From positions 3,348,001 through 3,412,000 of the forward strand of contig CP089275.1 in the NCBI GenBank assembly GCA_023920165.1: a stretch of DNA of 64,000 nucleotides. The letters run 5' to 3'. A program made the position numbers and the translations under genes. This DNA is from Curvularia clavata (lineage: Eukaryota). Below the pieces are notes generated by a model. That model was not told the DNA's origin. It searched no databases and saw only the letters and a program-made list of their open reading frames with translations. Shown here piece after piece: positions 4,761 through 58,602 of the stretch. How positions within the stretch are numbered: the first letter of the stretch is position 1; the number at the start of each line of letters is the position of its first letter.

Positions 4761-5290
4761 TGTTTAGGCTCAGTTGGTGTTCGATGTTTAGTTTATTAGG
4801 TGGATAGTAGTAGGATCTGCAGTTGTAGAAAAAAATGAAGTTTGGAAGAGTGCCACTAAAGTACGTCAGTTTGCTGTGGGTTTCAAATTCAAGTCGCGAT
4901 GATGGACAGTGGCGTCATACGTTTTTGTAGCGCTGCAAACAAGCAGTATGTAAAAGTGTTTCGAAGAACTTCTGTCGGATCGAACTCGGTGCTATCCTAT
5001 ACAGTCATCGACGGCCAGTACATGCTCGGGCGCCCGCCTGTTTGGGACTAGTGCTGGGGACGGGGTTGGCGCGTGCATGGCTGAAAACCACAACGCGCGC
5101 AACCCCGACTCTCATCATTCCCGACTGGCGTGTCGCTGTTCACTCCCTTTCCCTTCTTCCATCCCCACGCCCAGCTTAGTTGCAGGTGCTGGCTGTATTT
5201 GTATAATCACCAACGCTGCGCTCGCATCTTGGTATTGGTACTGATCTTCTCGCCTATTCCCCTGTTGTAATTGTAGCGCCAACTGCTTCA

Positions 5291-7733
5291 ATGTCGTCAA
5301 CAGCCACAGCGCCGTTGTCGCATCTGAATGGGGCCGGCGCGGTATCTGCAGAGGTGCTTCGCGAGGCCGAATTCCTTCAGAAGATTCTGCAGATACGCGA
5401 CGATGTGTTTGCTAGCAAACACCCGCGCATCCACCTTCCAGCCAAAGTAATAGAACAGGTTGCACCACGTCTCCCCCAAGCTGCCTTGGGCAGACCCACG
5501 ACAAACGGCACATCCATCGGATCCTCGTCTCATCTGCTTCCTCCGCGTCCAGCGTCGTCAGGGCGACCTCCCACGTCTCCAATCCCCCCTACACCCACAC
5601 AGCGACCTTTTCCGAACAAGTCTTCTTCGTCAAGCATCGACCCTGTCTTGCTCACAAAGTCGGAACATTTGGTTAGGGCAGAGCAGCAGCTTAAGCGACA
5701 GCAAATAGAACGCTCTCTCAAGGACCAGTTCGACCGGAAAGGTCGCAACAACGATGCTGATGAGCGAGAAGCTCTCATCGATGTGGAGCAGTGTTTGATC
5801 AAGGCTCATCAACTGGTTCCTCCAATCTCTGGCTTACCCTCTACGGCTAACAACAGTGATGGCGTCGAGTCATTTGACGAGAACTCCTACTACTCTAGCA
5901 AGGCAGACAGTTGGTCTCCAGAACCTGATCCCGCTGACTACAGCCATGCTGCAGCAGCTCCACTGACCCCACAAACACAACAAAATGCCCAGCAAGTGAC
6001 TGTTCACACCCGTCCAGCTGATCCCCCAGTGATTGATCTGGACGAGGAGGCCTATGAGCCGGCTGATGACATAGAAATCTACGAGCCTGAACCAGCACAA
6101 GTGCATGAGGATGGTGATGAGGAAGAGGACTATTCTCCGCCTCCAGCCGACATTGGTCCAAGTGAGCCAGCAAGAGGCCGGGGGCGTAACCGTAACGGTG
6201 GGACAAACGGGTAAGATATTGAAGACTTTCCTTTACAGTTTTATTTCTATTTTTTCTTTAGGGCTTCTACATCATGAGACATATGGATGCCGAGTACTTG
6301 CAAACTGGACTGGAACACTAATCCTCTGTTGCTGACTGCCAAGAAACTTGGGAACCTGGATCTCAACCGGGACATTTTTCTGCATGATGTATGGAGACCT
6401 CATAAATTTTGTCTATGAAGCGTTTATATCAATGTCCCTTTTCTTTTCAAGATTAAGTTGCTAATTTGCGTATAGTTCCTCACGTCGCCAGAGCCCCACC
6501 GGTGCAGTGCCATCTGTACAGAACCCTCGCAAGCGGAGAAGAGAAGAGAGACGAGAGCGCGAGGAGAGGAGACGCCAGCAGGCCAATAAGCAACCACTGC
6601 AGTCTCCCGAACCCTATATCAAGGAAGAGCCGCAATCACCTCCTCCTTTCGGAAGCTACTCAGATCCGCAGCCAAGTAAGCGTCGCGCGCTGCAACCTCA
6701 ACCAGATGAATTAGAGGTTGTATCGGCACAGGCAAGCCCTAGGATGCAGCCTGTCTACTACCGCGATCAGGAACCGCTGATACGTTCTTATCGTGAGTTT
6801 GATGAGCCCTCCTCTCCTACTGTCATACGCACACCACAACGTAGAGTGCAGCGCGACGACCATGATCTTAGGCGGGTTGCGAGTCTACAGTTCGCCCGAC
6901 GACCGTACTCTCCTGGTGGTGGTGGGGAGCTTTATGCAGCGCCAGAGCCCCGTCAGATGCGTGCAGCATCCCATGCCTTTGTCGAGCGCGCCGAAGTGCC
7001 ACCTACGTACCGAGAAGTGTCAGCTCGCCCGTCAGCAGCACCTAGATACATGCGCGAGCGCTCACGGTCCCCTATTCACGAGTATATTGGACATGGTTCA
7101 TCGCCAATGCTCATGGCCCCGCCGCCCCGCCGTATTGTTGTGGACCAGTATGGGAACAAGTACTACGCTGCGCCCGTGGATGCTCGAGAGTCGATGGCAC
7201 CGCCTAGCAGACGCATAGAGGTTGACCCTTACTATGAGCGGGCTGTTACACGGGAGCCGGCGATGCGTGCACCTGGTCGAACAGAGATGTACGAAGAGGA
7301 TGTGATACAGAGAATGCCACCACCACCACCGCGACGCTATGTCGAAGCATCGGAGGCGGAGATGATGGAGAGCCCGTACCGTCAGCGGGAGGCGTCTCGT
7401 CGTCCCGTGGAAGTGGAGTACCGGCCTGCACCTCAATATGAAGAGATGGGCCCCCCACGAGAGTACCCTTCTGCGCGGTCATATAGCATGCGTCCCGAGG
7501 GAGTGCGGAGGGAAATACCCGAGGGCTATGTCCGTCACGAGAGCATTCAGCCATTGGCTGTACGTGCATCGCAGCCCCGCTTCCGCGAGGTCAGCGTGAT
7601 GCAACAAGAGCCGTTTGATGAACGTCGCTATATCAGTGCGCCTCAAAATAGGCGCTATGTCGAAGAAGGGCCCATGGAGGGTGCGGCTGAGCCATATCCT
7701 GGCGAAGCGCGTCACGTGTATGCCCGGTACTAA
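5291..7733 (+). CDS. Uncharacterised Pro/Arg/Glu-rich fungal protein, 2 exons
   Basis: The ORFs at 5291 and 6507 join in frame through intron 6211-6475 (GTAAGA..CTAAT..TAG). Low-complexity sequence with a conserved-looking RRIVVDQYGNKYYA block. Confidence 0.72.
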
Positions 7734-41654: not shown

Positions 41655-42971
41655 TGTAAAAATAATAAACAGGTATTAGATAAAGTTACACACACGCCAA
41701 GAGGCTAATAGCGCAGAGAAAGCAAGAAAATAATAATAATGATTGTCTCCAGGACTATGAACCAAAAAGAATGGATCCGGTCAACGGAGAGGTTGAAAAG
41801 AACGTCTGACTTCTCAATGACAATGTCAACCCACGGCAATCAAGGCGAGGAGAGAGAGAGAGTAAAGCAGTGGAACCTGGAGGCGCCAGGGCTTTGAATG
41901 GAGCATGACGGCTTGGGGGCCGGCTTGTCAGGGTCATTTAGTCTCAGTCGCACAACGTCTCCAGTTGGCGATTGAGTGGATCTGCTTGGCACTGTCTTCA
42001 TCCCCAGCGCTGCTAAGAAAATACGATAGAAACGGTATCTCTTTGATTGGGCTGAGTTGAGTATCCTTGAAACTAAGGCTCAATGACGCCCAGTAACCTG
42101 CAACATTCGATCGACAGGTGAATGTGCGGAATCGTCTAGCTGGGCAATGCTAAGACATGCATCAACTGGGGTCTGAGGCTTGTTTGAGTTCTGTGGTTGG
42201 GCACGGGGAATACTTGAGACGCCTTGGCGGTTTGACCGTTCAATGATGCAGCGCCTTGTGCTTCAGCACCCCCATACACGCGGCGGCATCGCATGGGTTA
42301 CCAGGGCGCCACAGTTGCTGCTGTTGGGACAAGCCATGCGCTAACGCTGTCAGTTCTGTTGACAGAGTGCATGACGCCTCGTGGATCGAGCAGATGGAAG
42401 ATCTATAGAACAGATGCTTGAGCCATGCACTTGGTCTCATTGGCAGAACCCAATCTCAGGATGATTCTGAATAGCTTGTTAGCAATAATCATCAGGATGT
42501 TCCATGCAGACATGTCAGTACGTAGGCGCCTTTGCAGACATTGTGTTACGTCTGTGAAGCTGGGGCAGAAGTGGAGAAAGGAGGCGCCACTGAGAACAGG
42601 TGTGGCGCGAAAACCCCGGATGAGAAGTGGAGCCTCACCGTGGTCAGGCCGGCGGGCCACCAACGTGCCGCATCAACAACGTTCCGCATCCGTACTGATA
42701 TCTCGAATACTGGTGGAACTGTCGCGTGCTCCCTTGTCTTTTGACGCATGAGCCTACCGGTCGTGGGATTTTGGCATTGCTAACAGACAGGACGTTAATC
42801 ACGGGTTTCTGCTTCCCGTATGCACAGTACCCTATGGAGTAAAGCAGCATATAAGGAAGCCACACAATGCAGGAGAAAACAGGATATGTTACAAATTATA
42901 TCATCCGTTTAATTATGAGCACATACTATGGAGTGAAGATTGAAAACTGACGGAAAAAAGATGAGCCAGGT

Positions 42972-45900
42972 CTACGTCGGTAAGGCTCGGTCCATACTTT
43001 GACCTAAACACATCTCATAGTACATCCCTCTCTTCGCAAGCAAGTCTTGGTGGGCTCCACGCTCCACAATACTTCCCTTGGCAAACACAAAGATTGTGTC
43101 TGCATCCTTTATGGTACTGAGACGATGTGCTACTGCAATAGTTGTGCGTCCACTCTGCGCTTCCTCAAGTGCTGATTGGACCACTCGCTCAGACTCGGTG
43201 TCAAGGGCAGATGTGGCTTCGTCAAGCAGTAGCAGGCGTGGCTCCCGTATCAATGCTCGGGCTATTGCAATGCGTTGGCGTTGCCCTCCAGATAATTGCG
43301 TGCCTCTGCTACCACACATGGTTGCGAAACCATTCGGTAGAGATGTGACAAAATCATAGATGTTGGCTTGTTTGGCCACATTCTCAACTTGCGCATCGGT
43401 GACATCAGTCTCCATACCCATGGCTATGTTGTCACGAACCGAGCCTTGGTACAAGACAGGTTCTTGCTGGACTAGCGAAACACTACGACGATATTTGCGG
43501 GGACAGAGATCCGCCAAGGACTGATTGTCGCAAGTTATTCGACCTGTAACTGGATCGTAGAATCTCTCAAGAAGAGATACCATTGTCGATTTCCCACAGC
43601 CGGATGCGCCCACAAGTGCGATGAAGTTGCCCGGCCGTACGTCAATATCGACACCTTCTAGGACTTTGGCATGTGGCCGAGACTCGTACGCAAACGCAAC
43701 ATCTTGCACTTCAATATGCGCAGGACCCTTGTCCTTCTCGTCGTCGGATGGCGGCTTAGAAGCATCCTCCTCCACGGCCGGTGTTAATCGCCTCAACCAG
43801 AACACGTAGTTTGCCGCTGTAGCTGCTTTGGTCAGACTGGTTGTGTATGAGAAGAACCCTGCGGCTGCTTCTCCTGAAAAGATAACTCCGATGAAAACGG
43901 TAAAAAATTGTGTGGTATTGTACTCGCCGGTACTGATGAGGCGACCACCGTACCAAAAGCCCTACATTTTGTTAGTTGCATCTCTCCGGACATTAGCACA
44001 TGAGATGATACATACCAGAGCCATAGCCAGAAACGAAATAGATTGCGACAGTGCGTACCAGAACATGGTCCACACTAGAGCCCGGATGCCGTCTCTTGCG
44101 ACGTGACGCAAACGGTCCTCATATCGTGCAAGAACATGTCGCTCAAGCGCGAGACTCGAAACTGTACGAATGGCGGAGACTGCTTCAGAAGCGAGAGCGG
44201 CGCTACTGGCAAACCGCTTTCCAGTAAGTTCCTCAAGTTTGAATTCAAGCCGAATCCTGAGATAGCCAGCGAGTACGATTGGCGGTAGTGCTAGAGGCAT
44301 AAAAGTCAGCATGGCTTCCTCATTGGATCTGAGAAACCCACCTCCGAAAACGACCACAAGACCCAGCTTCCATCCAATAGCAATAGCAAGAATGGAGCTG
44401 GACACAACATTAACAACATTGATACAGATGAGCATCAAGTTGAAGCCCATGAGCTCGCGTAGGTTGTCGGGATATCCCGAGAGATTTGAAACAAGCGCGC
44501 CACTAGCATTGCTCTGGTCGTCGAAGAAGGCCATGTCTTGCTTGAGGACCAGATCAAATATCTCGCGTCGGTACTTTCTTCCCACGACTTGTGCTACAAT
44601 GTTGCTTGACCAGCCAACAGAAGCGTATACAGCTAGATTGCCAAGAGCAACAATGAAAAACATGAGGGACCAGAAGTCACCCTGGGATACGGCTCGGCCG
44701 GGAGGTAACTCAAAAGCTCTGACAACACGCGAGAAGAGTATAGCTTGGGCAGGGAACGTCGCTCCCCCTGCGAGAACCGCGATTAGTAGAACAAGGAAGC
44801 ATTTCCAAAGCTCACCCTGTTCCCTGAGAATCAGAAAGGTGCACTTCACCAGATTGTAATTGATTCCATCTTTCGTCGACTGTTTTACCTCATGATTCGT
44901 GCCGGATGCTTGGGTCTGCGTACGTACTAAATCAACCCTCTCTGTAGTCTGATCCTGCTTGAACTTTTCTTCATTCTGGGTCTGGCCAAGATCCTGAGCT
45001 CTGACGAGGCGAGTGTACGCCCCATCTCGCGCCAAGAGTTGTTTGTGTGAGCCTTGTTCCACAACAGCACCGCTGGCCATGACAACAATGTTATCCGCAT
45101 TACGGATGGTAGAGAGACGATGTGCGATGACAATTGTAGTACGTCCTTCAGAGACGCGCTCCAAGGCTTGCTGAACGATCTTCTCGGCTTTTGGGTCCAG
45201 GGCGCTGGTGGCCTCGTCTAAGAGCAAAACAGTTGGCTCTGAAACTATACTCCGTGCGATTGCTATCCGTTGCTTTTGACCACCTGAAAGGTTTGCTGCG
45301 CGCTCACCAAGCTGTGTGTCGTAGCCCTGTCGGACGTCAGCGCTGCTCCCTGATGTATAACACACAAAGCCAAGGAACCCACTCTAGGTAGTCGTTCAAT
45401 GAACTCGTCAGCATAAGCATCTTTACAGGCTTTTTTCACCAATTCTCGCTGCTCACTTTCAGGAAGATTGGCTTTTTCGGTGCCGAAAAGGCCGAATGCG
45501 ACATTTTCGTATACTGTTCCAGAGAATAGAACGGGCTCTTGTTGAACCAGACGTATTTTGGTCCGCAGCCATGTGAGGTTGAACTCTCTTATATCTGTAC
45601 CATCCAGAGTAATTATGCCACTAGCCGGATCGTACCAACGTTCGATCAAGCCGATAATAGTGGACTTGCCGCTACCTGAGGCTCCTACGAGAGCAGTGGT
45701 TTTACCAGCGGGTGCTGATACAGTCAGGTTGTTTAGCACCGTGATATCGGGTCTCGCAGGGTAGGCAAAACTGATATCCTTAATCTCGATGACGCCCTTA
45801 CAGATGGCGGGTTTTTTCCCATCCTCGTTCAGTGGATCTATCTCAGATTTGCGATCAATGGTTTTGAACAACTCGTCTGCAGACGAAGATGCCTTCGTCA

Positions 45901-47191
45901 ACGCCAAAATCTGAGGAGCTATTGTCGTCATTGCAGTAGCTGCCACAATCACAGCCAATATGACGGTAAATACGTCCCCTATTGAGATGTCAATGATTTT
46001 CATCGCCAACTGTTAAGACTTTGTTCTCAGTTAAGAAAAAGATCGACATACCACTCTGTTTGATCTCTCCTCTTGCAAACATCCGAATACCTTGCCAGAA
46101 GGCCAATCCATAGCCACAGTAAACGCAGAAGAATTCGGTGGAAAATAAGACAGCATAATTGGGTGATTTCTTCATGCCTACATCCATTGCTTCACCGAGA
46201 ACTTTGTCGTACTTGCGCGATAATAAAGGATGCAGCCAAAAAGCATGAACGGTGCGTATGGTTGAGAAAACTTCTTCTGCAAGCTGTCCGGCTCTTGAAT
46301 AGATTGGTAGCAGCTGGTCCTCGTTCTTAGCATCAATGCCTACGCAGATGCCAACCGCTATCAGGATAGTGGGAACGATGCTAATCGTGATCAAGGCGAG
46401 CTTCCATTGTACGATGAAGGCGATGATGAAAGCTGATACGAATGTAGATACACCCTGAATGGTGAGTGTAAGCTTTTCAGAGATGCCATTGTTGACATTA
46501 TTCCCGTTGCTGGTAGCTTGCGATGTAACAGAAGCAGCCTCATCTGAATCAAAGTAGGCAATGTTCTGCCGAAGAATATGTTTGATGAAGTCTAAGCGCA
46601 AGGCCTTGGTGGTGCGTATGGCGGCTATGGATACGAAAGTCTGGCGACATGAGCATTGGCATATCAAGATACAGGGTTCTCGATGGGGTTTACATACAGA
46701 GTGAATATATACTAAAGCGAATTTTCCAATGAAGAGATACAAAAAGTAGACAGTATACTTGTTCACTTCGGATCGATACTGTGCTGGGGTGATACCACCA
46801 GTAGAAAAGCCGGTAAATGTGGAAACAAATCTAAATTGTCAGCGAAGACCTTGATTCTGCTGCATCACAGGATACTAACTTCCCAAAAACAAGATCCATG
46901 AGCGGAAGTAATGTCCCAGCAGCGATGGCTGCAACAAACGCAATGATATTCAGAGTCCAACCGATGCGATCTGTATACCGAAAGACGCGCTGGAACGGTG
47001 TCAATAGGAATAGGAAATCTAACGTTGGTATTCATAGTCCGCTAACTTACCACATAACCACCCATGCCACCGCTTTTAGGCGCCTGCGATGTAGCATCGC
47101 TATCGTGGTCTGAGAATGTGCTTCCCTTGGCATCTACAGATACTTGTGTCTCAGATTGAAGTGGCTGAGCCTGATGATCTTCAGAAGGCAT
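42972..47191 (-). CDS. Full-length ABCB (MDR/P-glycoprotein-like) ABC transporter, multi-exon
   Basis: Two NBDs: GASGSGKS / [13 protein letters not shown] / [11 protein letters not shown] and GASGCGKS / [13 protein letters not shown] / [23 protein letters not shown] order. Starts MPSEDHQ at 47191. Confidence 0.95.
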
Positions 47192-47293
47192 GATTGCAAA
47201 CAAAGCTGATGCCGTTGAACATCACACCAGCTGGTACAGCTGAACAGTTCTACCGAAGTTGGTCAAGTGTGCGCTTCAAATACTATACAGAGT

Positions 47294-47666
47294 CCGGAGT
47301 CCGTGGATAAGATGTCCGCAGCTAAGAGGCCACGCCGAAAGGGCGCGTTGGAAGACCGAGCGCGGCATCGAGACGACCGTAGGGCGTACGAGTTGAATGC
47401 GAATCATACACCAGACACAGCAGCCTATGGGAAGGAAGAACCATCTTGGCACAGTCACGTGTCCTGTCTATCTTCTGTCGCGTACGCGGGGTGCGGTCCC
47501 ATAACCAACTACAAATAAAGTTCAACCTGTTCCATTCGTGACTTAATGTCCATGTTTCCGGGTTGACACAAGGCTGCCTGCAAGAAATCGATTGCTGCCT
47601 GGTGTTTATGTGATTCTCGTCGACAGTAATGACATAGTTGACGGAGCCCCCTGTGCCCGGAGTCCG
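47294..47666. promoter_or_regulatory. Two copies of CCGGAGTCCG (CGG-N3-CCG) in the ABC/TF bidirectional promoter; putative Zn2Cys6 sites
   Basis: Exact 10-mer at 47294-47303 and 47657-47666. The first copy overlaps TCCGTGGA (47300-47307), a PDRE-like octamer. Confidence 0.45.
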
Positions 47667-47778
47667 AGAAGCCCGAGAAATCCGCAAGCTAACCCCTCGC
47701 ATTACTACAGCCACTCTCGCACTCCACGCGCAGCGACACCGCGGCACCGCGGCACTAATCGAGCCCACAACCGACGCC

Positions 47779-50574
47779 ATGGAAGATGAGGACATGGATG
47801 GGTCCCCCGACGGGGGCTTGTCTAAGCGTGCGGTAAGTACACAGCAGGCAGCCCCTAGAGCTTGGCTCGAGGCTGCTTACAGTGATCCACCCGCTGACGA
47901 TCCACAAAACAGTGTGATAGCTGCCGCACGCGTAAGATACGCTGCGATCGAGCCGTGCCATGTTCGAACTGCAAAGCGAGCAAACTAGGTATGAAACGCT
48001 GGCTTCGCTATGCACATAACAGGCCGTTACTGAGAAGCGCAGCTTGCAAAACAACCGCTCCTCAGCAGAAGGCTCAGCGGCAAAGGGTCCACATCTCTGA
48101 AGAATAGTACGTGTTTCAACAAATTAATTATTCTAATTGGCTGTATTTGCGAAAATCCAGCCATATCCACATGGCTTCGCAAAAGCAAACCATGAAAACC
48201 CAGTCCGGTTCCATTTGGTGGCCAGTTATAAATTACGACCAATGACATGAATGCTGACCTATTACAGCGAGAAGAAAATAGACCGAATTGAAGATCGTCT
48301 AGCAGGAATCGAAACCGTCCTAGCCAATCTTTCGTCAAAACTCGGCAGCATTGACCTTTCCAAAGACATCCATGAATCCAGCAGCCAGTCACGTTCCAGC
48401 CGGGTTGGGCGAAGCCCAGGTAGCGGTTTACAAGAAGCTCCTACCCCTGCACCGTTTGAGGGTGAGAGCTCGATCAATATTCAGTCGGTTTATGCTCGTG
48501 AGATGCTAGCTCAGGTGATTGATAACACACCGTCAATTGGCCAAAATGAAGAAGTCAAGACAGCACTCACAGCACTCTCGGAAATGGTATCACAGCCGAG
48601 CCAGACTTTAGCTCCAAGCAACCGCTTGATCAATCGTTCCCTTTCCGAGGTGGATCCTGCAAGGCTTGAACAGCCTCCATGGACGGAGGTTTGCAAGGCT
48701 TTTGATGCAGCTATGAGTTGAGTTCCAATACACCTCGTTGCTTGCACGCTACTGACTTACCAGGTTATCCTACAATGGCATTTGCCGTCGTGTTTCCGTT
48801 CCTTAAAATGCCAAACCTGAGGGAAATCTTCTACGATGCATACCACAATGCTGGCACATGTACCGCTGCTCGGCGGGTGCTCACTTATGGCATCCTAGAG
48901 AAGATCTTTGACGAATTTATTGCATTCCCCCCTGCGGGTATGGACATAAGCGAATATGCTACCTACACAACCATATGCAAACGGCAGTCAGAGGTAGCAC
49001 TGAGCCAACTCGACCTGTTCATGCCAGCAAGCTATGAGAACATCATGGCCCTGGTACTCGGATCAGCACAGGCAGTCGAGATGTGTAAGCCCTCTCTTTG
49101 CTGGGTCTTGATATCGGCTGCAGCGGGTTTGTGTATAAGCCTAGGATATCATCGCATCAACACCATGATTCACGATACCCCTGAAGAGAAACAGTCGAAG
49201 ATCTACATCTTCTGGATGATATACATGTTCGACAAGACTTTGTCGCTGAGACTGGGTCGATCCAGCATCCTGCAGGACTGGGATATATCCCTGCCCTTCG
49301 TGCACGAGAGTCCCCACGACAAATCAGCGGCCAAACCTACTCAAATGTTGTCCTACTGGGTCAAGGTTGCCAGGATTCAGGGATTGACATATGAGAAACT
49401 CTTCTGTCCCGCCTCCTTCATCAAAACCACCGAGGAGCGTATGGCTACTGCAATGGACCTGATTAATGGCATGAACCAAGCGTGGTATGAACGTGACGAT
49501 GTAAAAGCCTTCACTCGCGCAAAACTAGGCAAAAATGCCAACGGGGTCACGCAACAATCAACTGGAATAGGGCCCAGCCCTAACGATACCCCACTACCGT
49601 CGCAAATAAATGAGTACATACAGCGGTCGCTGAAGGAAAAACCAGAATCCAACCAGTATATTAAGAGTATGTCGCATAATTTGTTTCGGCATGATATGTT
49701 AGGCTAATTCCACCAGATGCATACGACCGCGTTGAAGACATATTCTTTTATTCTGACGTCGTCTCGCACTACTCGACGTGTGCACTCATACAGCGCTCAG
49801 TAAGCCCAGGCAATATGTCCTTCAACAAGGAATGCCTTGAATCATCGCGAGCAGCTCTTGAAGCTCATAAGAGGGCTTGTTTACAGTTTAACAAGAAAGG
49901 TCAAGAGGAACTCTGGTCTGGATATGTACACTGGTCTATCCTACAGGCGCCATTTGTACCGTAAGCTGCTTCACTCACTTTCCTAGACGTTCCGAGCTAA
50001 TTGACGCAGGTTTATTGTCATCTTTTGCAACGCGATCCAACAGGCAGACACATCTGATGTAAGCGCGGACCTCCAGTCACTATCAGAGTTTATCACTAGT
50101 CTCGAGTCCTGTCGCACTATCTCTGAAGGTGCAGACAAGCTTTACAGGATGTGCCATCTCTTCTTGCGGGTCGCAAGGCTTTACGTGATGGCGAAGACAC
50201 AAGATGCTGCTTTGCGATCACAAAACTTTACCCAAAGCACTCAACCCGGGTACTACAGCACTGCAGACGCCGCACAGCTCGACCTCAACGCCATGTCACA
50301 ATTTGATCCATATCTCAATGCACTTGGACTATTACCCAACTCGACCTGGCCAGCGGCTGATTACAACATGAATACCGGTGATCCAGGTGGCATGCAAGCC
50401 TTTCCGCAAGACCAAGCAACCGGCAACAATGCGAGTATAAGTCAAATGGACGTTGGATTCGGACCATCAGGTGTTAATCACAACGCTATGCAGGACTGGT
50501 TCTCTGGCTCTATATACCTAATGAACCTGATGGAGCCGGGAGACGATCTGCAGATGCCGGACCTGAATTTGTAA
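47779..50574 (+). CDS. Zn(II)2Cys6 transcription factor with fungal-specific TF (MHR) domain, multi-exon
   Basis: Spliced CDSCRTRKIRCDRAVPCSNCKASKLAC cluster; IFWMIYMFDKTLSLRLGRSS middle-homology motif; acidic/hydrophobic C-terminus. Confidence 0.92.
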
Positions 50575-51268
50575 GAAGATCAATTCAACGAAGAATCGGG
50601 CATGTCGATGCCTCCGGCGTCTCGAGGCAAGTCGATGATGATTTAACGAAGTGTTTTTAAATAGCGTGTTTCCTGATGAGAGCTATACCATGGATGATAT
50701 ATCAATACCCAGCTTTCAGTTTCCGCTTCTGAAGACGCCTTGTGTCCTGTGAGATCAATTCGCTACTGCTCTTCTTAGCAACATCACTGTCCAGTTCGGA
50801 CACTTACGGCGTTACTTTTACTGCATGCATCCGGAGTCGAGTTGTCACTTAATCTACTGACGCATCCGCCAGGCTGTCACACTCCCCCATACACCACAAT
50901 AAATAGCTTCCCATCACCGCACAATAGCCTGACTGTAAATGCCGATAAACCTTCTACCAAATACTACAAATACCACGGAGAAACCAGTCAAGCTGAAATA
51001 TCGATCAACAGCTCCATTCATTTCTATATATTAACCTTGCTACAGCCCATCCACAAAGGTACGATCGCCTTTGGTAAAAAAACACAATATCAAAATAAGA
51101 AAACTCCAATCCTGTACAAGCCATCACCCAGTTACTGTCTTGTTGAGAATAGTGCTGACACTCAAGTAGCTTTGTTGACGATATGCCGTATGGAGATTAT
51201 CCCACTGAACGAATCCTCCATTACAGCTACCACTTGAGTGTCGGGTATCATGAGACCAACGAGGGGGC

Positions 51269-52355
51269 TTAGTTGCCAGCCTTCTTGCCCTTGCCCTTAC
51301 CCTTGGCGCCATTCTGGTGGTGGGGGTCACGGGCTTCGACTTCGACGTCACGGGCGTTCTTCTTGCCTTTGCCCTTACCCTTAGCACCGTTCTGGTGGTG
51401 GGGGTCACGGGCTTCGACTTCGACGTCACGGGCATTCTTCTTGCCCTTGCCCTTACCCTTAGCACCGTTCTGGTGGTGAGGGTCGCGAGCGACAAGGTCC
51501 TCCTCGTCCTCATCCTCAGCCTCGACGTCGCGAGCGTTCTTCTTGCCCTTACCCTTGCCCTTGGCGCCGTTCTGGTGGTGAGGATCGCGAGCTACGAGGT
51601 CATCCTCCTCGTCTTCGTCCTCGACGTCGCGGGCGTTCTTCTTGCCTTTGCCCTTGCCCTTGGCGCCATTCTGGTGGTGGGGGTCGCGAGCTACGAGGTC
51701 CTCCTCGTCCTCATCCTCATCTTCAGCCTCGACGTCACGGGCATTCTTCTTGCCCTTACCCTTGCCCTTGGCGCCGTTCTGGTGGTGAGGGTCGCGAGCT
51801 ACGAGGTCATCCTCCTCGTCCTCGTCCTCGACATCGCGGGCGTTCTTCTTGCCCTTGCCCTTGCCCTTAGCACCGTTTTGGTGGTGGGGGTCACGGGCTT
51901 CGACTTCGACATCGCGGGCATTCTTCTTGCCTTTGCCCTTACCCTTAGCACCGTTCTGGTGGTGAGGGTCGCGAGCTACGAGGTCATCCTCCTCGTCCTC
52001 GTCCTCGACATCGCGGGCGTTCTTCTTGCCCTTGCCCTTGCCCTTGGCGCCATTCTGGTGGTGAGGGTCACGGGCTTCAATGACGACATCGCGGGCGTTC
52101 TTCTTGCCCTTGCCCTTACCCTTAGCACCGTTCTGGTGGTGGCGAGCTTCAAGGTCACGAGCTGAAAGAGCGGCAACGAGGTTGGATGCTTCTTCGTGCT
52201 ACAAGAGTGTAAGTCAGTGCTACAGAGAAGAGATCATAAGATGAACATACAGGCATACGGGCCTCAACGGCGTTATCAACAACTTGCTTATTAGGAACAA
52301 CATAAGCTGAGGCAGTGGCACCGAGGGCCAACAAAGTGATGGTGGAGAAACGCAT
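51269..52355 (-). CDS. Secreted 10x tandem-repeat peptide precursor (KEP / dikaritin-type RiPP precursor candidate), 344 aa, 2 exons
   Basis: Exon 1 52355-52251 encodes the signal peptide MRFSTITLLALGATASA. Intron 52250-52199 (GTATGT..CTGAC..TAG). Exon 2 52198-51269 is open for 310 codons and carries 10 copies of HHQNGAKGKGKGKK between acidic spacers ending in AR. Confidence 0.92.
51272..52141 (-). repeat. Coding tandem array of 10 cores with 78-108 bp period
   Basis: The (c/t)tggtggtg landmark recurs at about 51314, 51392, 51470, 51572, 51671, 51779, 51878, 51956, 52055 and 52133. All spacings are multiples of 3. Confidence 0.95.
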
Positions 52356-52508
52356 TTTGAATGTGTTGATTAAATGTTCGAAATTGAATGGATTGAACGA
52401 GAGGATCTGCCTGCAGAGACGAAAAGAGATGGACTGAAGGAGCAAGTTGTGAGAAGGAATGAGCACGTTCAACGTTGATGCCCTTCTCACCTTGGATGTC
52501 GAATTAAC

Positions 52509-52514
52509 TTTATA
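52509..52514 (-). promoter_or_regulatory. TATA box of the repeat-precursor gene
   Basis: TATAAA on the minus strand about 155 bp upstream of the ATG, followed by a CT-rich leader and a CAAAATG start context. Confidence 0.55.
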
Positions 52515-53625
52515 GTTTCGACCTCCGTGCCATGTGTAGCCTTACACTGACTTATGCATGGATATCTCTGAGACGCCTTGCATTGCCAGCGGAATTGAAT
52601 ACGGAAGGTCGGGCCTGCCTCAGCCACGTGTAGTCTAGCAAGACATCATGGATCGCAGGGCCTGGAATAGCGGGTAGTCAAACGTACGGAGTTGTGACAG
52701 GGTGTTATCTCCACCAATAATGTCGTCCAAGGAGTACAAGCACTGCGAAAGCTTGGTGCCTCCCATGTGATTGGAACCGAGTCAATGCTTGACAGACAGC
52801 ACGGTCTAACCTAGATCGTGGTCTTGGGAACGAATCATGAAAATGTCGATATGTTACCATGACAGCAATCTACGGAGATTCTGTGGGGTTCAGACAGGCG
52901 TCTTGACAGGGTCCCAATCTAGCCGCGGCGACACGCGCAGAACTCCGCGTCATTTAGAAGGGTCGGCATTCCCAAGCACACTTTCGGTATCGATCCGTTG
53001 ATGGTATGCAGCACGGTTGTTCCAAGTGTGTGTCAAGTCGAACCGACAGCTACATGTTTTGCCTAGCGGCGCCAAGCTGAAACCATGGTGTGGAATATGA
53101 ACAACGATTCTTGGCTAAGCGACTATCTTGAAACCCAAGCGAAGACTCAGCCAACGGGAGGGCTGAGACCATCCGCTGTCCCTGTCTCAAGAATGCTTGG
53201 TAAAAGCTTGATTGCTGTTTGACATCGCATTGCAAGGCTGCGCGCAGGCTATTGTTGCCTGGGGATGAAAAGTTGGGCTTGACTGGCTGTGGCGAAGCCG
53301 TCACAACGGACCTGTTTCATCCACTCCGCGCTCCTGCGTCAGTTGGAGTTCTGGCTGCGATCTTGACGTCGTTGCATTGACGGTTGGGGTTTCACGACGA
53401 GGAGGCACACTGTAAAGCACTATCTCCCCTACGTACCTTTTCCATTCGTCACATTTACATTTTTTTTTGTCTTTGTCAATTCGCTGAGCCGGTACTCTCT
53501 CTTTCCATCGCAGGTCGACCTACGTAATTTTTGTTTCTTCTTCCCACCTCCACATTATCTGTTTTCATTTACACATTTCTGCCTCGGGTTGACCATTCAC
53601 TTTGCTGTTGCCGACCGGATTCACC

Positions 53626-54600
53626 ATGGAGAAATACACAGATACCAGCTCACAAGATGTCGACTCGGAAAATGCGTCCCTTATGAACAACCAGACTCAA
53701 AAAGACGAAACTTCAAAACGACGACAAAGCTTTGTCTACCTCACACTCTTCAACCTCTTTCTCTTCACACTGTCCATGCTCTCGATGATATGTGCGGTGA
53801 TGTCGCAACGGGATTCATCAGGCAATGCGGCCGCTAAACTCATGGACCAATTCGATATTTTCTGTATGGCAACCCGTGTCTTCCTACGACAAGACTCGCG
53901 AAAAGAAGGAACAAACTAACAATTCCACAGCACCCGCAATGCATGAAATCGAATACAGCCACACCAAATTCTCTTTCGCCAACCCCCTCAACTCCTCCAA
54001 ATATGTCGGTACCAGCGAAGAGGTCGACAACGCCTGGTGGGACATTGCCTTCCGTAAGTCCCTCCTCACCCCCTTTCCTTCCCGCATTCTAATCTCACAC
54101 ACGAACTATAGTCCCCGACCAAATGGTCTCCAAAGCCGACTTCCCCAAGCTGCGCAAGCCCGCCGACGCACTTCAAGTCACGGACCCCAAGACAGGCGAG
54201 ACAGGATACCGTGTCGGCCTCGAAGTCTTCCATCAACTCCATTGCCTCAATCTCCTCCGCATGTCAACATATCCCGAGCACTATACCAAGGTCTGGTGGA
54301 GCGATACCGCGGATGAGTCGGCCAAGGTGCGCGCGCATTTGGGTAAGTTAGCCCCTTTTCCTTCTACCCCTTCTTCTCTCCAACTTCCATGGAAAACAAG
54401 GTAGCTAATGCAAAACAGACCACTGCATCGAGATCCTACGTGTAAACCTCATGTGTCTCTCTGACGTCAACGTCTTCACCTTCCATCCAATTGAAGGCCA
54501 AGGCTACTGGCCCGACTACGATAGCCACCACGTGTGCAGGAATTTCGATCGCATCAAAGATTGGGCGAAGGAGCATGCGATGCCCGCGGCGGATGTTTGA
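53626..54600 (+). CDS. DUF3328 / UstYa-family oxidase (fungal RiPP tailoring enzyme), 257 aa, 4 exons
   Basis: Exons 53626-53863, 53931-54053, 54112-54342 and 54419-54600 total 774 nt. N-terminal TM helix, VDNAW, EVFHQLHCLNLLR, HLDHCIEILRVNLMCLSD and HVCRNFDRIKDWA. Both HxxHC motifs are present. Confidence 0.95.
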
Positions 54601-54989
54601 GTGGTAGTTACCGTTCGAGAAAAAGAAAAGCGGACGAGCGTGTATAGAGGTTCTTATATAGTTGTATCATTAGATAAGCCCGTATAGACTATGGGGCAAA
54701 TTTTTGTAAATGAAAGATTTTGTGGAGACTTTTTATTTTTACTTTTATTTTGGACGCATGATTGTTGGTTTCTTTGTGCTATTGTGTTTTCGAAGTACGC
54801 TGTCCTGACATGAGATCTGGAATACCTTAATCATTGCAATGAGACAGTCAAGATTGTTTTGAGGTACATATGATAAACCCCAGGTCATTTCCTTTGGTTA
54901 TTTATTTTAGTGAGTTGAGGGCGGTCTACTTCCCCCCTTTTTTTTAAGATACTTTTAATTCTATTTACTACAAGCGAACCTGTAGTACC

Positions 54990-55027
54990 AAAAAAAGAAA
55001 AGAAAAGAAAGAAAGAAAGAAAGAAAA
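54990..55027 (+). repeat. (GAAA/GAAAA)n purine microsatellite
   Basis: aaaaaagaaaagaaaagaaagaaagaaagaaagaaaa within an AT-rich intergenic region. Confidence 0.8.
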
Positions 55028-55538
55028 TGCTTACAGAAGTCAGATTCGACTACAAAATCATTTCCTTTTTAATTTTCAATACATAGTAAGCTGAGAACGA
55101 CTTGCCTTTTTTTGGAAAAATAAAATAAACACAAGTGCTGATACGCACACGAACTAAAGGTAAAAGAGTACATAATATCAAGATAAAAAATTGGCATCAT
55201 GTCACAAGAAAGACAATAGGCAAGTTCTGATGCAACGTTCATCTTATATTGTACACATTGCGGATCGTCGTGATATCCTCATGATGTCACATATGATACA
55301 TGCGCGCTGCTCTTGAGCGCAGTCGTCCGTCCTAGTAGTGACGTGTCGTGGGCTAGATGCATCCATCATACCCAAACTTCCTAGCCCAGAGTCATTTCTG
55401 GATTCTTCTTCCACCCGCTTGTTTTCCACCTCCCACCCCACTGGATTTCCTATAAGCGAGGAGTATACCATCCAGCAATGCGATGGATGCCCAAAGAAAA
55501 TTTCTTACAACTCCAGAGTGTGGTTCGTGCGCTGTTTC

Positions 55539-56777
55539 TTATACAATAACTTCACCACAGTCGATATAGTTCGGCCGCCATTTGCTGGTGTCCAGTTCGC
55601 CCTCTGTGCTGCTGGGCACTGTGACCTCGACAGGCTTGTACAAATACCATGCTTTCAATGCTGCTGCCGCTGCTCTTGTCCTCGCCTCATCCAATGAACT
55701 GCCTGCTCCCTCACCCAGCTTGTCCTTTCCACTGTACACACCTACAACAAACACAGGATGTCTGCTTAGACGTCCAGTCTCAGAGATGAGTCGTGCGATC
55801 GGTGGCTCAAACCCTTCTCGTGCACATAGCGTTGAAAGATCCCGGGTTGGTGTGCGGAAGTCAAAAAGCGAGCTGATGTCGAGATGCCTGCTGAGGAAAT
55901 GGTCGCGGAAAAAGCGCTTGACGAGGGGAGAGCCTAGGTGTTGGTGGAGTGCGCCGAAGAGGGCCCGGACGAACGATTGTGCGGCCTCCTCCATCGGCAC
56001 GCCTGTCTTCTGAAGGGCATGTGGGCTGGGTGCGGCATTATCCGAGCCAAATTCGTCTGTCTTCATAATTTTGTGTGTTGTGGTGACGTTCCAGCTCCAT
56101 GGTGCCTGTCGTCTCAGAGCAGCTGGGATATCATCTCCGGATCTTATTCGCTTGAACTGTAGCAGGCCGGGGTCTACCTCACCACCGGGTTCGGCCGCCG
56201 CTTCGATACCCCATTCACGTGCTACGGTTGCTAGTGCCTTGGGGCCAATATAGGCTTCGACTGCAGCAAAAACAACAGCCATTGGCAGCCGTGGGTAGTT
56301 GCACAGGATCCATTCGGATGTATAGTAGCCAAGTAGATGGCGTCCGAGTATCGACAGTGAGGCATTGTTGAAAGCGGGATTGGGGTCTGCGGATGGATGT
56401 ACGAGGGTTCGGGCGAGAGCCTGAAGGGGAAATCGGGGTGGTAGTGATAATCGACTCCGGAGGGCGTGGAGTTTTATCGAGCGCTCGGCGGCGTGTGGGT
56501 GTGGGGAGGGCAGGCTCTCAAGTGGGAGAGGGTGCGAGCCAGCGGGCCGTGAGTGGTTTGCTGATGATGATGCGCCAGAATTTGCTGCAATCTCTATTTC
56601 CAGATCGCCATCATGTGGTATAGCGACTGTTGACTGGAGGCGTGCGTGTATGCGGTGGCTATGTGGTGCAATTGCTCGGGGAGCATTCTTCGCCGCGGCA
56701 TATGGGCAAGAGGGACGGCGTGGCAATGGCTGGGCCAGCAATTGCGAGGCACATCTTGATATGGGTATGCGCTTCAT
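55539..56777 (-). CDS. MRPL3: Mitochondrial ribosomal protein mL44 (RNase III-like + dsRBD)
   Basis: Presequence MKRIPISR; NASLSILGRHLLGYY..YPRLP; PTRDLSTLCAREGFEPPIARLISETGRLSRHPVFVVGVYSGKDKLGEGAGSSLDEAR. Confidence 0.92.
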   Translation of the reverse strand: MKRIPISRCASQLLAQPLPRRPSCPYAAAKNAPRAIAPHSHRIHARLQSTVAIPHDGDLEIEIAANSGASSSANHSRPAGSHPLPLESLPSPHPHAAERSIKLHALRSRLSLPPRFPLQALARTLVHPSADPNPAFNNASLSILGRHLLGYYTSEWILCNYPRLPMAVVFAAVEAYIGPKALATVAREWGIEAAAEPGGEVDPGLLQFKRIRSGDDIPAALRRQAPWSWNVTTTHKIMKTDEFGSDNAAPSPHALQKTGVPMEEAAQSFVRALFGALHQHLGSPLVKRFFRDHFLSRHLDISSLFDFRTPTRDLSTLCAREGFEPPIARLISETGRLSRHPVFVVGVYSGKDKLGEGAGSSLDEARTRAAAAALKAWYLYKPVEVTVPSSTEGELDTSKWRPNYIDCGEVIV

Positions 56778-57001
56778 GAAGAAGACTGCACAGAAACAGC
56801 GGGAGAGGAGGGCAGCAAGGCGGAGTCGACGGCAGCAGCAATTGGGCGCTCGTGTGGTCTCTTGTCGAGTGATGATGGCCACCAAAGAATTTCCGCCAAG
56901 ACTGCGCGGTCCGTGCTAGCCCTACTACGCATGCGACAACGACCTCACCCAGCTCCGACGACAGCAGAACCCCCACGAAGACCCGCATACTCACAACCAC
57001 A

Positions 57002-57394
57002 ATGGGCGGCGGAGGAAAGATCCCGTATGGACTCCCCAGGACGCCAATTGCACGCAGCACCGACACTAAACATGGAATAGATACCCCAAGCACGTCTGGT
57101 CGCCGGCCGGTGGTTGGTACGCCCAACCCGCCAACTGGAAAGCCAATACAGCCGTCGTAGGCCTCGCCCTCGGCAGTATCGTCGGCATGGTCTGGATGCT
57201 CAGCGCAAACCGTGAATACCGTGATAAGATGCCCGAGCGCCACCGCTTCTTCCCCAGCCGATAGTACGATCCGCGTTCCCCTCCACTCGGTACAATGCAA
57301 CCCAAGCTAACCACTGCACAGCTGGAGCAAGCAAATCAGGGAGCACGAGCGGAAACAAGACCAGAGTTTGATTGAGAAGACGCTGGATAACTAG
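57002..57394 (+). CDS. Small single-TM mitochondrial complex I accessory subunit-like protein (NUUM/KFYI-type), 92 aa, 3 exons
   Basis: Exons 57002-57024, 57081-57263 and 57322-57394 give MGGGGKIPYPKHVWSPAGGWYAQPANWKANTAVVGLALGSIVGMVWMLSA...FFPSRYWSKQ. Canonical introns. The family assignment is from memory of the YPKxVWSPxGGW motif. Confidence 0.75.
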
Positions 57395-57437
57395 GGGAGT
57401 GGTATCAGGATTGGGGAAACACTGCGGCGACGACAGG

Positions 57438-58602
57438 CTATGGCTGTATATAACTAGCCAGCCGCTGCTTGAAATCTGAAAGCCTATTTTCGACAAAAAC
57501 ACCGTTCCATGTCTCTCCGGAGTCCGAATGAGAGAGCACAGGCATGCCGACTTGTTCAATGGCAAAGCTGGCTGATATTGACCCCCACATTGCACCCTCT
57601 TCTATATTGTCCATGAATAAGCCGTGTTTTCCACGCACGAGGCCAACCGCAAGCCCGCCCAAGAAGCTGTTGCCTCCACCCGTGGGATCAACCACCTTGT
57701 CCGCTGATTGGTGATAGGCAGGCATCCATTTGCGTTCGCCTCTGCGCGCCACGAGGCAGCCGTCTTTTCCACACCGGACCACAACCCCACCATTCCCGTC
57801 TGGTCCAATTCCACTGCTTAGCCATTGACTACTCAGCTCTTCAATCGCGCGAAAATCGACTCGATCTGGCCCGTCTGTGCTCTTGCCGAAGAAGCCGCCA
57901 AGTTCACCATGGTTAGGACTGATGATGTCAATGTACTTGAGTGCTTTCCGGCAATTGTCCAGTTCTTCAGGAGTGCATAGATCGGGGACCGGCTCCCATA
58001 TGAACATGGGGCGAGGGGCCTCAGTTGAATTGTCCTGCTGCTCGCGGAGAGCAACGATGTTTTCGACCAGATCAATGCAACGTAGAGGTGAGCAAATCAA
58101 GTGGAAAGACTTGGACCATAGCAAAGGTGTGCCTATGAGTGCTTTGTGGTCCAATCGCAGTTTTGGCGTCATGTATCGGAAGGCTGCACAGGTTGAAATC
58201 AGAATCCGATGTGCAATACAGTAGCTGATACGTACCTCGATGCTCATTTTCTCCCTCATAACCATTCCATCCCCGCGTCGTCAGCCGATCGGACGTCTCA
58301 CGCATGAGCACGCCAGTGTTCCACTGGGCAATGTACTCGCGCAACTCATAAGGAAAATCTGACCCGCAGTCTACGATCCAGCCCACTCCTTTGGACTGTG
58401 GCGGGGGAGAGAAGATGCGTGCGCCCAAAGCGGAATATGTTCCTGCTCCGCCGACGATATCCTTGACTGGGGGCTTTGGTGGAGGAAATTCAATCTCGTC
58501 TTGCATGATTCAGTGCATTGCCAGATGGCATATTCTTAAGCACATACCAATGATGAACATTCCAAGAGTACAAAAGTCGATCTTCTGGTCTTGTTCCGCC
58601 AT
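57438..58602 (-). CDS. PfkB/ribokinase-family protein (Mak32-like), 3 exons
   Basis: DFCTLGMFIIDEI, GGAGTYSALGAR, IWEPVP, ISPNHGEL and the PfkB signature VVDPTGGGNSFLGGLAVGL. Confidence 0.88.

Follow-up and report, generated by a model that had tools for sequence, protein, structure and literature searches.

A conserved pair of a His-His repeat precursor gene and a UstYa/DUF3328 oxidase gene in Curvularia clavata: a candidate two-gene RiPP-like module

Introduction

Recent work identified enzymes of the DUF3328/UstYa family as oxidases that depend on copper and that hydroxylate peptides, halogenate them or cyclise them (PMC12435403). CctR, a DUF3328 protein that hydroxylates cyclochlorotine in a copper- and O2-dependent reaction, is a membrane-anchored, disulfide-linked homodimer of the Golgi/endosome lumen that requires O2 and an electron donor and carries a binuclear copper centre at HxxHC(x)nHxxHC; copper dependence is also cited for the cyclase AprY and the halogenase ApnU (PMC12435403). 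Among the peptides made by ribosomes and modified after translation (RiPPs), the dikaritins (asperipin-2a, ustiloxin/phomopsin) place a UstYa/DUF3328 gene beside an endoplasmic reticulum (ER)-targeted multi-core precursor, whose short, Tyr-containing, KR-flanked cores are made into ether-bridged macrocycles; for asperipin-2a, one UstYa enzyme suffices (PMC7329392). Here we describe a locus in a 64,000-nt stretch of the Curvularia clavata genome (contig CP089275.1, positions 3,348,001 to 3,412,000; hereafter the window) in which a gene encoding a precursor with ten identical His-His-headed cores lies head-to-head with a UstYa/DUF3328 oxidase gene.

The closest catalogued relatives are Kex2-processed repeat proteins (KEPs), for which Umemura (Fungal Biol Biotechnol 7:11, 2020; PMC7329392) mined 1461 genomes, requiring at least three tandem repeats of 8-100 amino acids (aa) between KR, KK, RK or RR sites. 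One of the resulting types, type 15 (label G-8), was singled out for a di-histidine motif and comprises 49 KEPs from 48 strains and 18 genera, among them Bipolaris, Colletotrichum, Sporothrix and Pyricularia; some of its members had also been picked up by Le Marquer in 2019, according to a column of Table S2 (PMC7329392). A DUF3328 gene lies within 15 genes of 45 of the 49 type-15 KEPs, as against 22% of all KEPs and none of the 203 annotated as alpha-mating factors (PMC7329392). In the survey, the type-15 entry consists of accessions and a logo, with no processing grammar, product or orthology of the partner enzyme (PMC7329392).

Results

A ten-core precursor gene and an intact UstYa gene, both expressed

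The pair occupies positions 51269-54600 of the window, with the following parts:

51269-52198, minus strand: precursor exon 2, 309 codons plus stop (51269-51271); remainder of the leader and ten units
52199-52250, minus strand: precursor intron, 52 nt, GTATGT...TAG, phase 0, with a CTGAC branch-like site
52251-52355, minus strand: precursor exon 1, ATG at 52355-52353, 35 codons; putative signal peptide MRFSTITLLALGATASA and start of the pro-region
52356-53625, unstranded: divergent intergenic region, 1270 bp from ATG to ATG, head-to-head; shared promoter region
53626-53863, plus strand: UstYa exon 1, disordered N-terminus and predicted single transmembrane helix; PF11807 positions 3-39, E = 0.23
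53931-54053, plus strand: UstYa exon 2, 123 nt; PF11807 positions 52-88, E = 7e-4
54112-54342, plus strand: UstYa exon 3, HQLHC (residues 161-165); PF11807 positions 97-165, E = 1e-16
54419-54600, plus strand: UstYa exon 4, HLDHC (residues 196-200), Cys210, Cys237 and stop; PF11807 positions 168-220, E = 2.5e-18

The first exon of the precursor encodes MRFSTITLLALGATASA|YVVPNKQVVDNAVEARMP, and the n-h-c shape of its N-terminus and the ASA|Y junction that follows MRFSTITLLALGATASA, judged from the letters, look like those of an ER signal peptide. The spliced protein is 344 aa long and contains the core HHQNGAKGKGKGKK exactly ten times, each unit bearing His-His (10/10) in the layout [LIV]x-A-R | (DP) | HHQNGAKGKGKGKK-NAR | acidic spacer; at the DNA level, Tandem Repeats Finder reports the array with periods of 78, 99, 177 and 207. 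Ten KK sites between residues 67 and 340 delimit repeats of about 24-34 aa, in line with Umemura's repeat rule. Charges in the mature precursor are balanced (72 K+R, 73 D+E); the whole protein has a single Tyr and a single Phe, both N-terminal.

The ten 42-nt copies of the core exist in seven DNA versions that differ at seven sites, all seven of them synonymous, although merely 24 of the 126 possible single substitutions in the core would be; by our own arithmetic under a naive model, the chance of this outcome is about 1e-5. Purely synonymous variation indicates that the identity of the peptide has been kept by selection and does not merely reflect recent duplication: the core peptide is under purifying selection.

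The UstYa gene, spliced from four exons, encodes a 257-aa protein letter-for-letter the same as a database entry (P0032) named in its source as an uncharacterised protein of Curvularia clavata. Its four exons match PF11807 colinearly along the profile, exons 3 and 4 scoring 61.8 and 67.2 bits against a gathering cut-off of 25, a value that exons 1 and 2 taken singly do not reach. Neither the precursor nor the UstYa gene has a second copy within the 64-kb window. The precursor itself was returned from neither of the protein collections searched, whereas its oxidase neighbour is annotated there; the public record probably either lacks an annotation for it or models it wrongly.

We placed on positions 42500-58500 contigs from four public sequencing runs of four studies (X1, X5, X9 and X15), data that report the presence of transcripts and can neither prove absence nor rank expression. 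The contigs skip GT..AG and CT..AC introns across the stretch, which identifies them as RNA-derived. The precursor joint 52198/52251 (CT..AC on the plus strand) occurs in contigs of all four runs, its shorter side in X15 being just 29 nt. For the UstYa gene, record 17 of X9 closes exon 1 at 53863: it covers 53478-53863 and 54112-54341 and leaves between them a gap of 123 positions, the length of exon 2. Record 3 of X1 runs unbroken over 52251-53863 and has the length to accommodate the other UstYa exons in spliced form. The precursor and the UstYa gene are thus both transcribed and spliced as modelled. A first-pass annotation, made from the letters of the window, had proposed a 344-aa precursor with ten identical cores, an intron separating its ATG from the repeat exon, an intact DUF3328 gene of 257 aa with HQLHC and HLDHC motifs and a divergent intergenic distance of 1270 bp, and had suggested PF11807 as a check on the enzyme; each of these agrees with the transcripts, the profile matches or the coordinates given above.

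Contigs also cover the intergenic region, entirely by a spliced contig in X1 and at low depth in X5; no contig lies on the UstYa gene in X15 or on the intergenic region in X9 and X15, which for data of this kind does not prove absence. The intergenic RNA (52356-53625) may be a long 5' untranslated region (UTR) of the oxidase mRNA, or antisense or upstream transcription. Within the repeat array, loose contig ends (51357, 51550, 51671, 51828 and 52005; X1, X5 and X9) continue into unlike sequence, and X9 lacks 6 nt at 51708; these may stem from alleles of different length or from paralogous repeat genes located elsewhere in those genomes.

The enzyme resembles CctR

In an alignment of 43 sequences, H161, C165, H199 and C200 of the UstYa protein are invariant or at least 90% conserved, and Cys210 and Cys237 are conserved as well. 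The N-terminal part holds a hydrophobic stretch, FVYLTLFNLFLFTLSMLSMICAV. An AlphaFold2 model computed with 43 orthologues (mean pLDDT 76, pTM 0.61) has a disordered N-terminus and a long helix at 21-62, and sets both HxxHC motifs on helices (158-172 and 190-209). The enzyme is accordingly predicted to be membrane-anchored, with a single N-terminal transmembrane helix and a lumenal catalytic domain. This modelled architecture of disordered N-terminus, one transmembrane helix and lumenal helical domain is that of CctR, as is the arrangement of HxxHC(x)nHxxHC on two helices with conserved C-terminal cysteines, and by homology the window enzyme would be a binuclear-copper, O2-dependent homodimer. 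The two differ in what they accompany: the substrate of CctR is a non-ribosomal cyclic peptide made within a non-ribosomal peptide synthetase (NRPS) cluster, whereas the partner of the window enzyme is a ribosomal repeat precursor. UniRef labels the window enzyme 'cyclochlorotine biosynthesis protein O', a name given by similarity.

Searches of the Protein Data Bank (PDB) gave no matches, whether by Foldseek with the AlphaFold2 model (0 at E <= 0.001) or by a profile search over PDB sequences with the UstYa protein. A complex prediction for the lumenal domain (residues 64-257) with a 41-residue precursor unit, run without controls, scored 0.00 and bears neither way on an interaction.

A precursor family with a strict unit grammar

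A HMMER scan over 1.84 billion representative proteins gave 29 matches at E <= 0.001; 11 of the 16 that we inspected are plainly the same kind of protein as the window precursor. Seven are named (Sporothrix stenoceras, Gaeumannomyces tritici, Cytospora mali, Microdochium bolleyi, Colletotrichum incanum, Bipolaris maydis and Mytilinidion resinicola), and the homologues span two classes, Dothideomycetes and Sordariomycetes. With phmmer, the window precursor finds P0013 (KZL67495.1 / OHW91178.1) at E = 3.5e-7 and the B. maydis protein P0019 at E = 5.9e-6, the latter 89% identical to it at the N-terminus over the matched stretch. Two further precursor loci, here L001 and L002, came from a metagenome scan. 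A word-indexed protein search with the repeat exon yielded 2 weak matches among 8000 scored candidates, its index swamped by K/G words.

Counting 70 His-His units in 14 sequences, we find an overall grammar of [LIV]-x-[AT]-R | (X-Pro)0-2 | His-His-x-Gly, a basic tail and R | acidic spacer. An Arg immediately precedes (X-Pro)n-HH in 70/70 units (n = 1 in 62, n = 2 in 4 and n = 0 in 4), Leu, Ile or Val stands three residues ahead of that Arg in 58/70, and Gly occupies position +3 in 56/70. The basic tail varies in sequence and length, the distance from HH to the closing Arg being 9-39 residues with a median of 15. That Arg is followed by an acidic spacer in 57/70 units; 8 of the other 13 are terminal or truncated, and in 5 the Arg leads directly into the next X-Pro-HH. 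The leaders, from signal peptide to first unit, can be aligned between the two classes (window 52199-52355 against P0004-P0022), with an Arg followed by an Ala-rich hydrophobic stretch, NLVAALSAR in the window and ALVALAAPALAFP in the Sordariomycetes, that could be a recognition (leader) element. Strict grammar and alignable leaders together indicate that the family is homologous and is not a set of low-complexity look-alikes.

These regularities bear on whether the precursor is cut at all. It could instead act whole, as a secreted, disordered polyampholyte of alternating acidic and basic repeats that coats the cell wall or surface, soaks up metal or works as an effector, and its very low complexity, its opposite-charge blocks with a net charge near zero, its lack of canonical KR and the fact that cleavage products have so far gone unobserved would all suit such a role. 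We nevertheless regard this as improbable, since an Arg in [LIV]-x-[AT]-R context is kept at the unit boundaries throughout the 70 units, several boundaries of the L001 precursor are canonical KR, and a spacing of 0, 2 or 4 residues between Arg and HH, filled with X-Pro dipeptides, is hard to explain without trimming by an exopeptidase.

A secreted 312-aa repeat protein from a metagenome (P0001) has the same spacer grammar (…DLVAR-DP-core-SRD-acidic…) around an amphipathic core, SIFGKIFGAVKGIF, that resembles antimicrobial peptides (AMPs) and has no His-His. The likeness of its spacers suggests that the processing grammar is common to precursors with other cargo.

The same UstYa lineage adjoins the precursor in two classes

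Precursor and UstYa genes carry consecutive numbers in the following genomes (precursor first):

EMD62335 / EMD62336: Bipolaris sorokiniana, accessions
EUC46312 / EUC46313: Bipolaris oryzae, accessions
EMD85980 / EMD85981: Bipolaris maydis C5, accessions
ENI01984 / ENI01985: accessions
KZL67495 / KZL67496: Colletotrichum incanum, accessions (CI238_01079 / 01078)
OHW91178 / OHW91179: Colletotrichum incanum, accessions
GGTG_01713 / GGTG_01712: Gaeumannomyces, locus tags

Adjacency is thereby seen in three species of Bipolaris, in Colletotrichum and in Gaeumannomyces, that is, in at least five named species of three orders (Pleosporales, Glomerellales and Magnaporthales). The linked UstYa proteins and the window enzyme are mutual search matches, those of Colletotrichum and Gaeumannomyces being 39-40% identical to it, and for two adjoining homologues, P0185 and P0230, the PF11807 scores are 176 and 171 bits. 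A search with window exon 3 returned orthologue-like matches, mostly one per species, throughout the Pleosporales (62-100% identity) and, beyond that order, in Pseudogymnoascus, Colletotrichum and others at about 46-56%; the back-search with the C. incanum enzyme recovered the same Bipolaris cluster together with a wide set from Sordariomycetes. The genera found in the UstYa searches overlap those of G-8.

DNA evidence comes from L001, a metagenome contig on which a UstYa gene (minus strand, 5120-4283; 71-77% identity; 140 bits to PF11807) lies head-to-head with a precursor gene (6249-6762), across a gap, 5120 to 6249, similar to that in the window. None of the window's other genes is on L001. 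The 10-kb 3' flank of L002 holds no UstYa, transcription factor or ABC gene, and its contig stops at the 5' side of the precursor. Since the pair is kept both on L001 and in the named genomes, the conserved unit is the pair. The first-pass annotation had proposed comparing precursor–DUF3328 adjacency across fungi, and consecutive numbering and the L001 DNA together show it to be conserved in two classes.

DUF3328 genes are many in Pezizomycotina (9399 in the 1461 strains surveyed; PMC7329392) and the window contains one such locus only, so that a coincidental juxtaposition might be entertained. It is, in our judgement, very improbable indeed: one and the same UstYa lineage is the immediate neighbour in the named species of three orders and again on L001, and adjacency over such distant fungi, with other neighbours differing, marks the linkage as conserved and not due to chance. 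This argues for the precursor and UstYa genes being a functional two-gene module of Pezizomycotina.

Neighbouring genes

A gene for a Zn2Cys6 (PF00172) and Fungal_trans transcription factor (47898-51344, plus strand) is convergent to the precursor gene, and its X5 contig reaches about 51344, overlapping the precursor 3' end; an additional 56-nt GT..AG joint in its 3' UTR (51113/51170) occurs in X1 only. Beyond it lies an expressed gene for a full-size, ABCB-type ABC transporter (42907-47300, minus strand), five CT..AC introns of which are verified by a contig of about 4.1 kb in both X1 and X5. We considered both as cluster members and set them aside: neither is found in the flanks of L001 or L002, which leaves their membership unsupported despite adjacency and expression. 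None of the 18 flanking frames scanned against Pfam (39155-63885) is NRPS-like, and genes for a tyrosinase, a methyltransferase or a reductase are not among the conserved neighbours of the precursor/UstYa pair. An A/G-rich microsatellite of aaag/aaaag units (54984-55034) lies downstream of the oxidase gene.

A Curvularia member of KEP type 15

The locus shares with KEP type 15 its putatively secreted tandem repeats, its His-His motif and a nearby DUF3328 gene; the window precursor matches a listed member, P0013, and its Bipolaris maydis relative P0019 adjoins the same UstYa. Table S2 of the survey lists as type 15 with DUF3328 nearby KZL67495.1 and OHW91178.1 (both P0013), EMD85980.1 (B. maydis C5), EUC46312.1 (B. 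oryzae), EMD62335.1 (B. sorokiniana) and EUN22868.1 (B. victoriae), and as type 0 with DUF3328 nearby EJT81738.1 (P0005) (PMC7329392). The first-pass annotation had called the system putatively new, a claim that finds no support, the type having been listed computationally as type 15 / G-8 (PMC7329392). It had also left undecided whether earlier KEP surveys included the locus, and here the answer divides: the type is listed, with Bipolaris among its genera, but Curvularia genomes were absent from Umemura's survey, so the window gene itself is unlisted. Searches with core and motif strings found no relevant match in the literature or in the supplements of Umemura and Le Marquer, where Table S2 gives accessions only.

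The window locus is therefore a new, Curvularia member of a type that is computationally known and chemically uncharacterised. To what was catalogued we add gene models supported by RNA and a unit grammar with a predicted His-His N-terminus, and we show that one UstYa lineage accompanies the precursor across two classes.

Discussion

Most probably, proteases of the Kex2 and Ste13 types cut the precursor into cationic peptides that begin with His-His. The expanded Kex2 motif has Arg at P1 and an aliphatic residue at P4 (PMC8528282), and an Arg with Leu, Ile or Val three residues earlier fits it. X-Pro and X-Ala dipeptides are the signature of Ste13-type dipeptidyl aminopeptidases (PMC6339444), and the distance from Arg to HH, which is always 0, 2 or 4 residues of X-Pro, matches removal of this type. 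From the grammar we predict mature peptides that start with His-His, in the window HHQNGAKGKGKGKK, possibly extended by N-A-(R).

We favour the interpretation that the locus is a two-gene RiPP-like module in which the invariant His-His-x-Gly head is the target of the oxidase and proteolysis is of the alpha-factor type, and give this a probability of roughly 0.55. On this interpretation the precursor would enter the ER by its signal peptide, and in the Golgi/endosomal lumen UstYa would act on the His-His-x-Gly head of all ten units. A Kex2-type protease would then cleave on the C-terminal side of two arginines, that of [LIV]-x-[AT]-R and that at the close of the basic tail (KK-N-A-R here), a Ste13-type dipeptidyl aminopeptidase would take off the X-Pro dipeptide, and C-terminal basic residues might also be trimmed. 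Ten copies of a polycationic peptide of roughly 14-17 residues, each with a (modified) His-His N-terminus, would be secreted, the acidic spacers having neutralised the precursor during transit. What favours this interpretation is the tight and ancient linkage, selection on the peptide, and an oxidase that would be lumenal as Kex2 is; the neighbouring UstYa probably modifies peptides derived from the precursor. As to biological role, a histatin-like antimicrobial or a copper-binding peptide is a guess.

Several observations weigh against the RiPP-like module, beginning with the precursor itself. KR, RR and RK sites are absent from the whole 344-aa protein. Tyr, Trp and Phe, the residues used by characterised UstYa cyclases, are absent from HHQNGAKGKGKGKK. 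Adjacency in the named genomes is that of accession and locus-tag numbers, not of DNA, and the UstYa genes are taken as one orthologous lineage on the strength of mutual matches, not of a paralogue-rooted tree. Literature searches found no product, mass, cleavage or modification described for any member of the family. At the predicted cleavage site, Ala at P2 is outside the five alternative P2 residues given for Kex2 (PMC8528282), and the Ste13 signature is, in the account of Le Marquer et al., characteristic of pheromone-like peptides that stay unmodified, whereas the cyclic-peptide precursors known so far lack it (PMC6339444). In Umemura's figures, 4 of the 49 type-15 KEPs lack a DUF3328 gene in the 15-gene neighbourhood, and overall the His-His content of KEPs is at a similar level whether or not they have DUF3328 (5.7% vs 3.9%) (PMC7329392).

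The comparison with dikaritins is correspondingly split. A repeat precursor with a clustered UstYa gene is present at the window locus, but in place of canonical KR flanks the core has [LIV]xAR and KK..NAR boundaries, and it offers no Tyr for an ether cross-link; it also differs from dikaritin cores in its X-Pro signature and in being a long Lys/Gly-rich cargo. Of the earlier proposals, that the core is unlike those of the characterised dikaritins holds, there being no Tyr, Trp or Phe in it. The proposal of a dikaritin-type RiPP locus stands in part: a multi-core precursor does lie by an intact UstYa gene, but the lack of KR/RR and the X-Pro signature do not belong to that type.

The precursor is also close to yeast alpha-factor and pheromone-type KEPs, which are processed by Kex2, Ste13 and Kex1 and with which it shares a putative signal peptide, identical tandem peptides, an acidic pro-region and an Arg-ended spacer followed by X-Pro dipeptides; the neighbouring DUF3328 gene, the polycationic cargo and the His-His head set it apart. 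The locus might encode an alpha-factor-like polyprotein yielding ten linear, unmodified, cationic His-His peptides with an antimicrobial, metal-binding or signalling function, the UstYa gene being co-inherited for some other reason, such as shared regulation or action on a different substrate. A combined Kex2 and X-Pro grammar is the signature of unmodified secreted peptides, a core without aromatic residues and a charge balance like that of cationic-peptide precursors are in keeping with it, and P0001 uses the same spacers for an AMP-like core without His-His. Unmodified peptides of this sort leave unexplained why the same UstYa lineage adjoins the precursor in Pleosporales, Glomerellales and Magnaporthales when other neighbours differ, why DUF3328 is so much commoner near type-15 KEPs than near KEPs at large, and why it is near none of the alpha-mating-factor KEPs (PMC7329392). 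We hold them to be a serious alternative, if on balance an unlikely one.

A bolder version of the RiPP-like module would make it an undescribed RiPP class, in which a binuclear-copper UstYa oxidises or cross-links His or adjacent residues, and not Tyr, before Kex2 and Ste13 expose the modified His-His as a free N-terminus, giving a secreted polycationic peptide with a copper-binding head, chalkophore-like or histatin-like. We put this forward tentatively, as a doubtful extension.

To our knowledge, all ribosomal substrates of UstYa enzymes that have been characterised are short cores containing Tyr. The His-His KEPs have been on record since 2020 but are chemically untouched. They are present in at least two classes of Ascomycota, cereal pathogens included (Bipolaris, Gaeumannomyces and Colletotrichum), with the oxidase as immediate neighbour. 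With exact gene models, expression, and predicted cleavage points and peptides, the locus is now a testable two-gene system. Action of the oxidase on His would be enzymology of a new kind; failing that, some other explanation is needed for the conserved linkage. Should the His-modifying RiPP interpretation prove true, dikaritin-type chemistry would for the first time be seen on a core lacking aromatic residues, and Ste13 trimming and UstYa modification would for the first time be found in one pathway.

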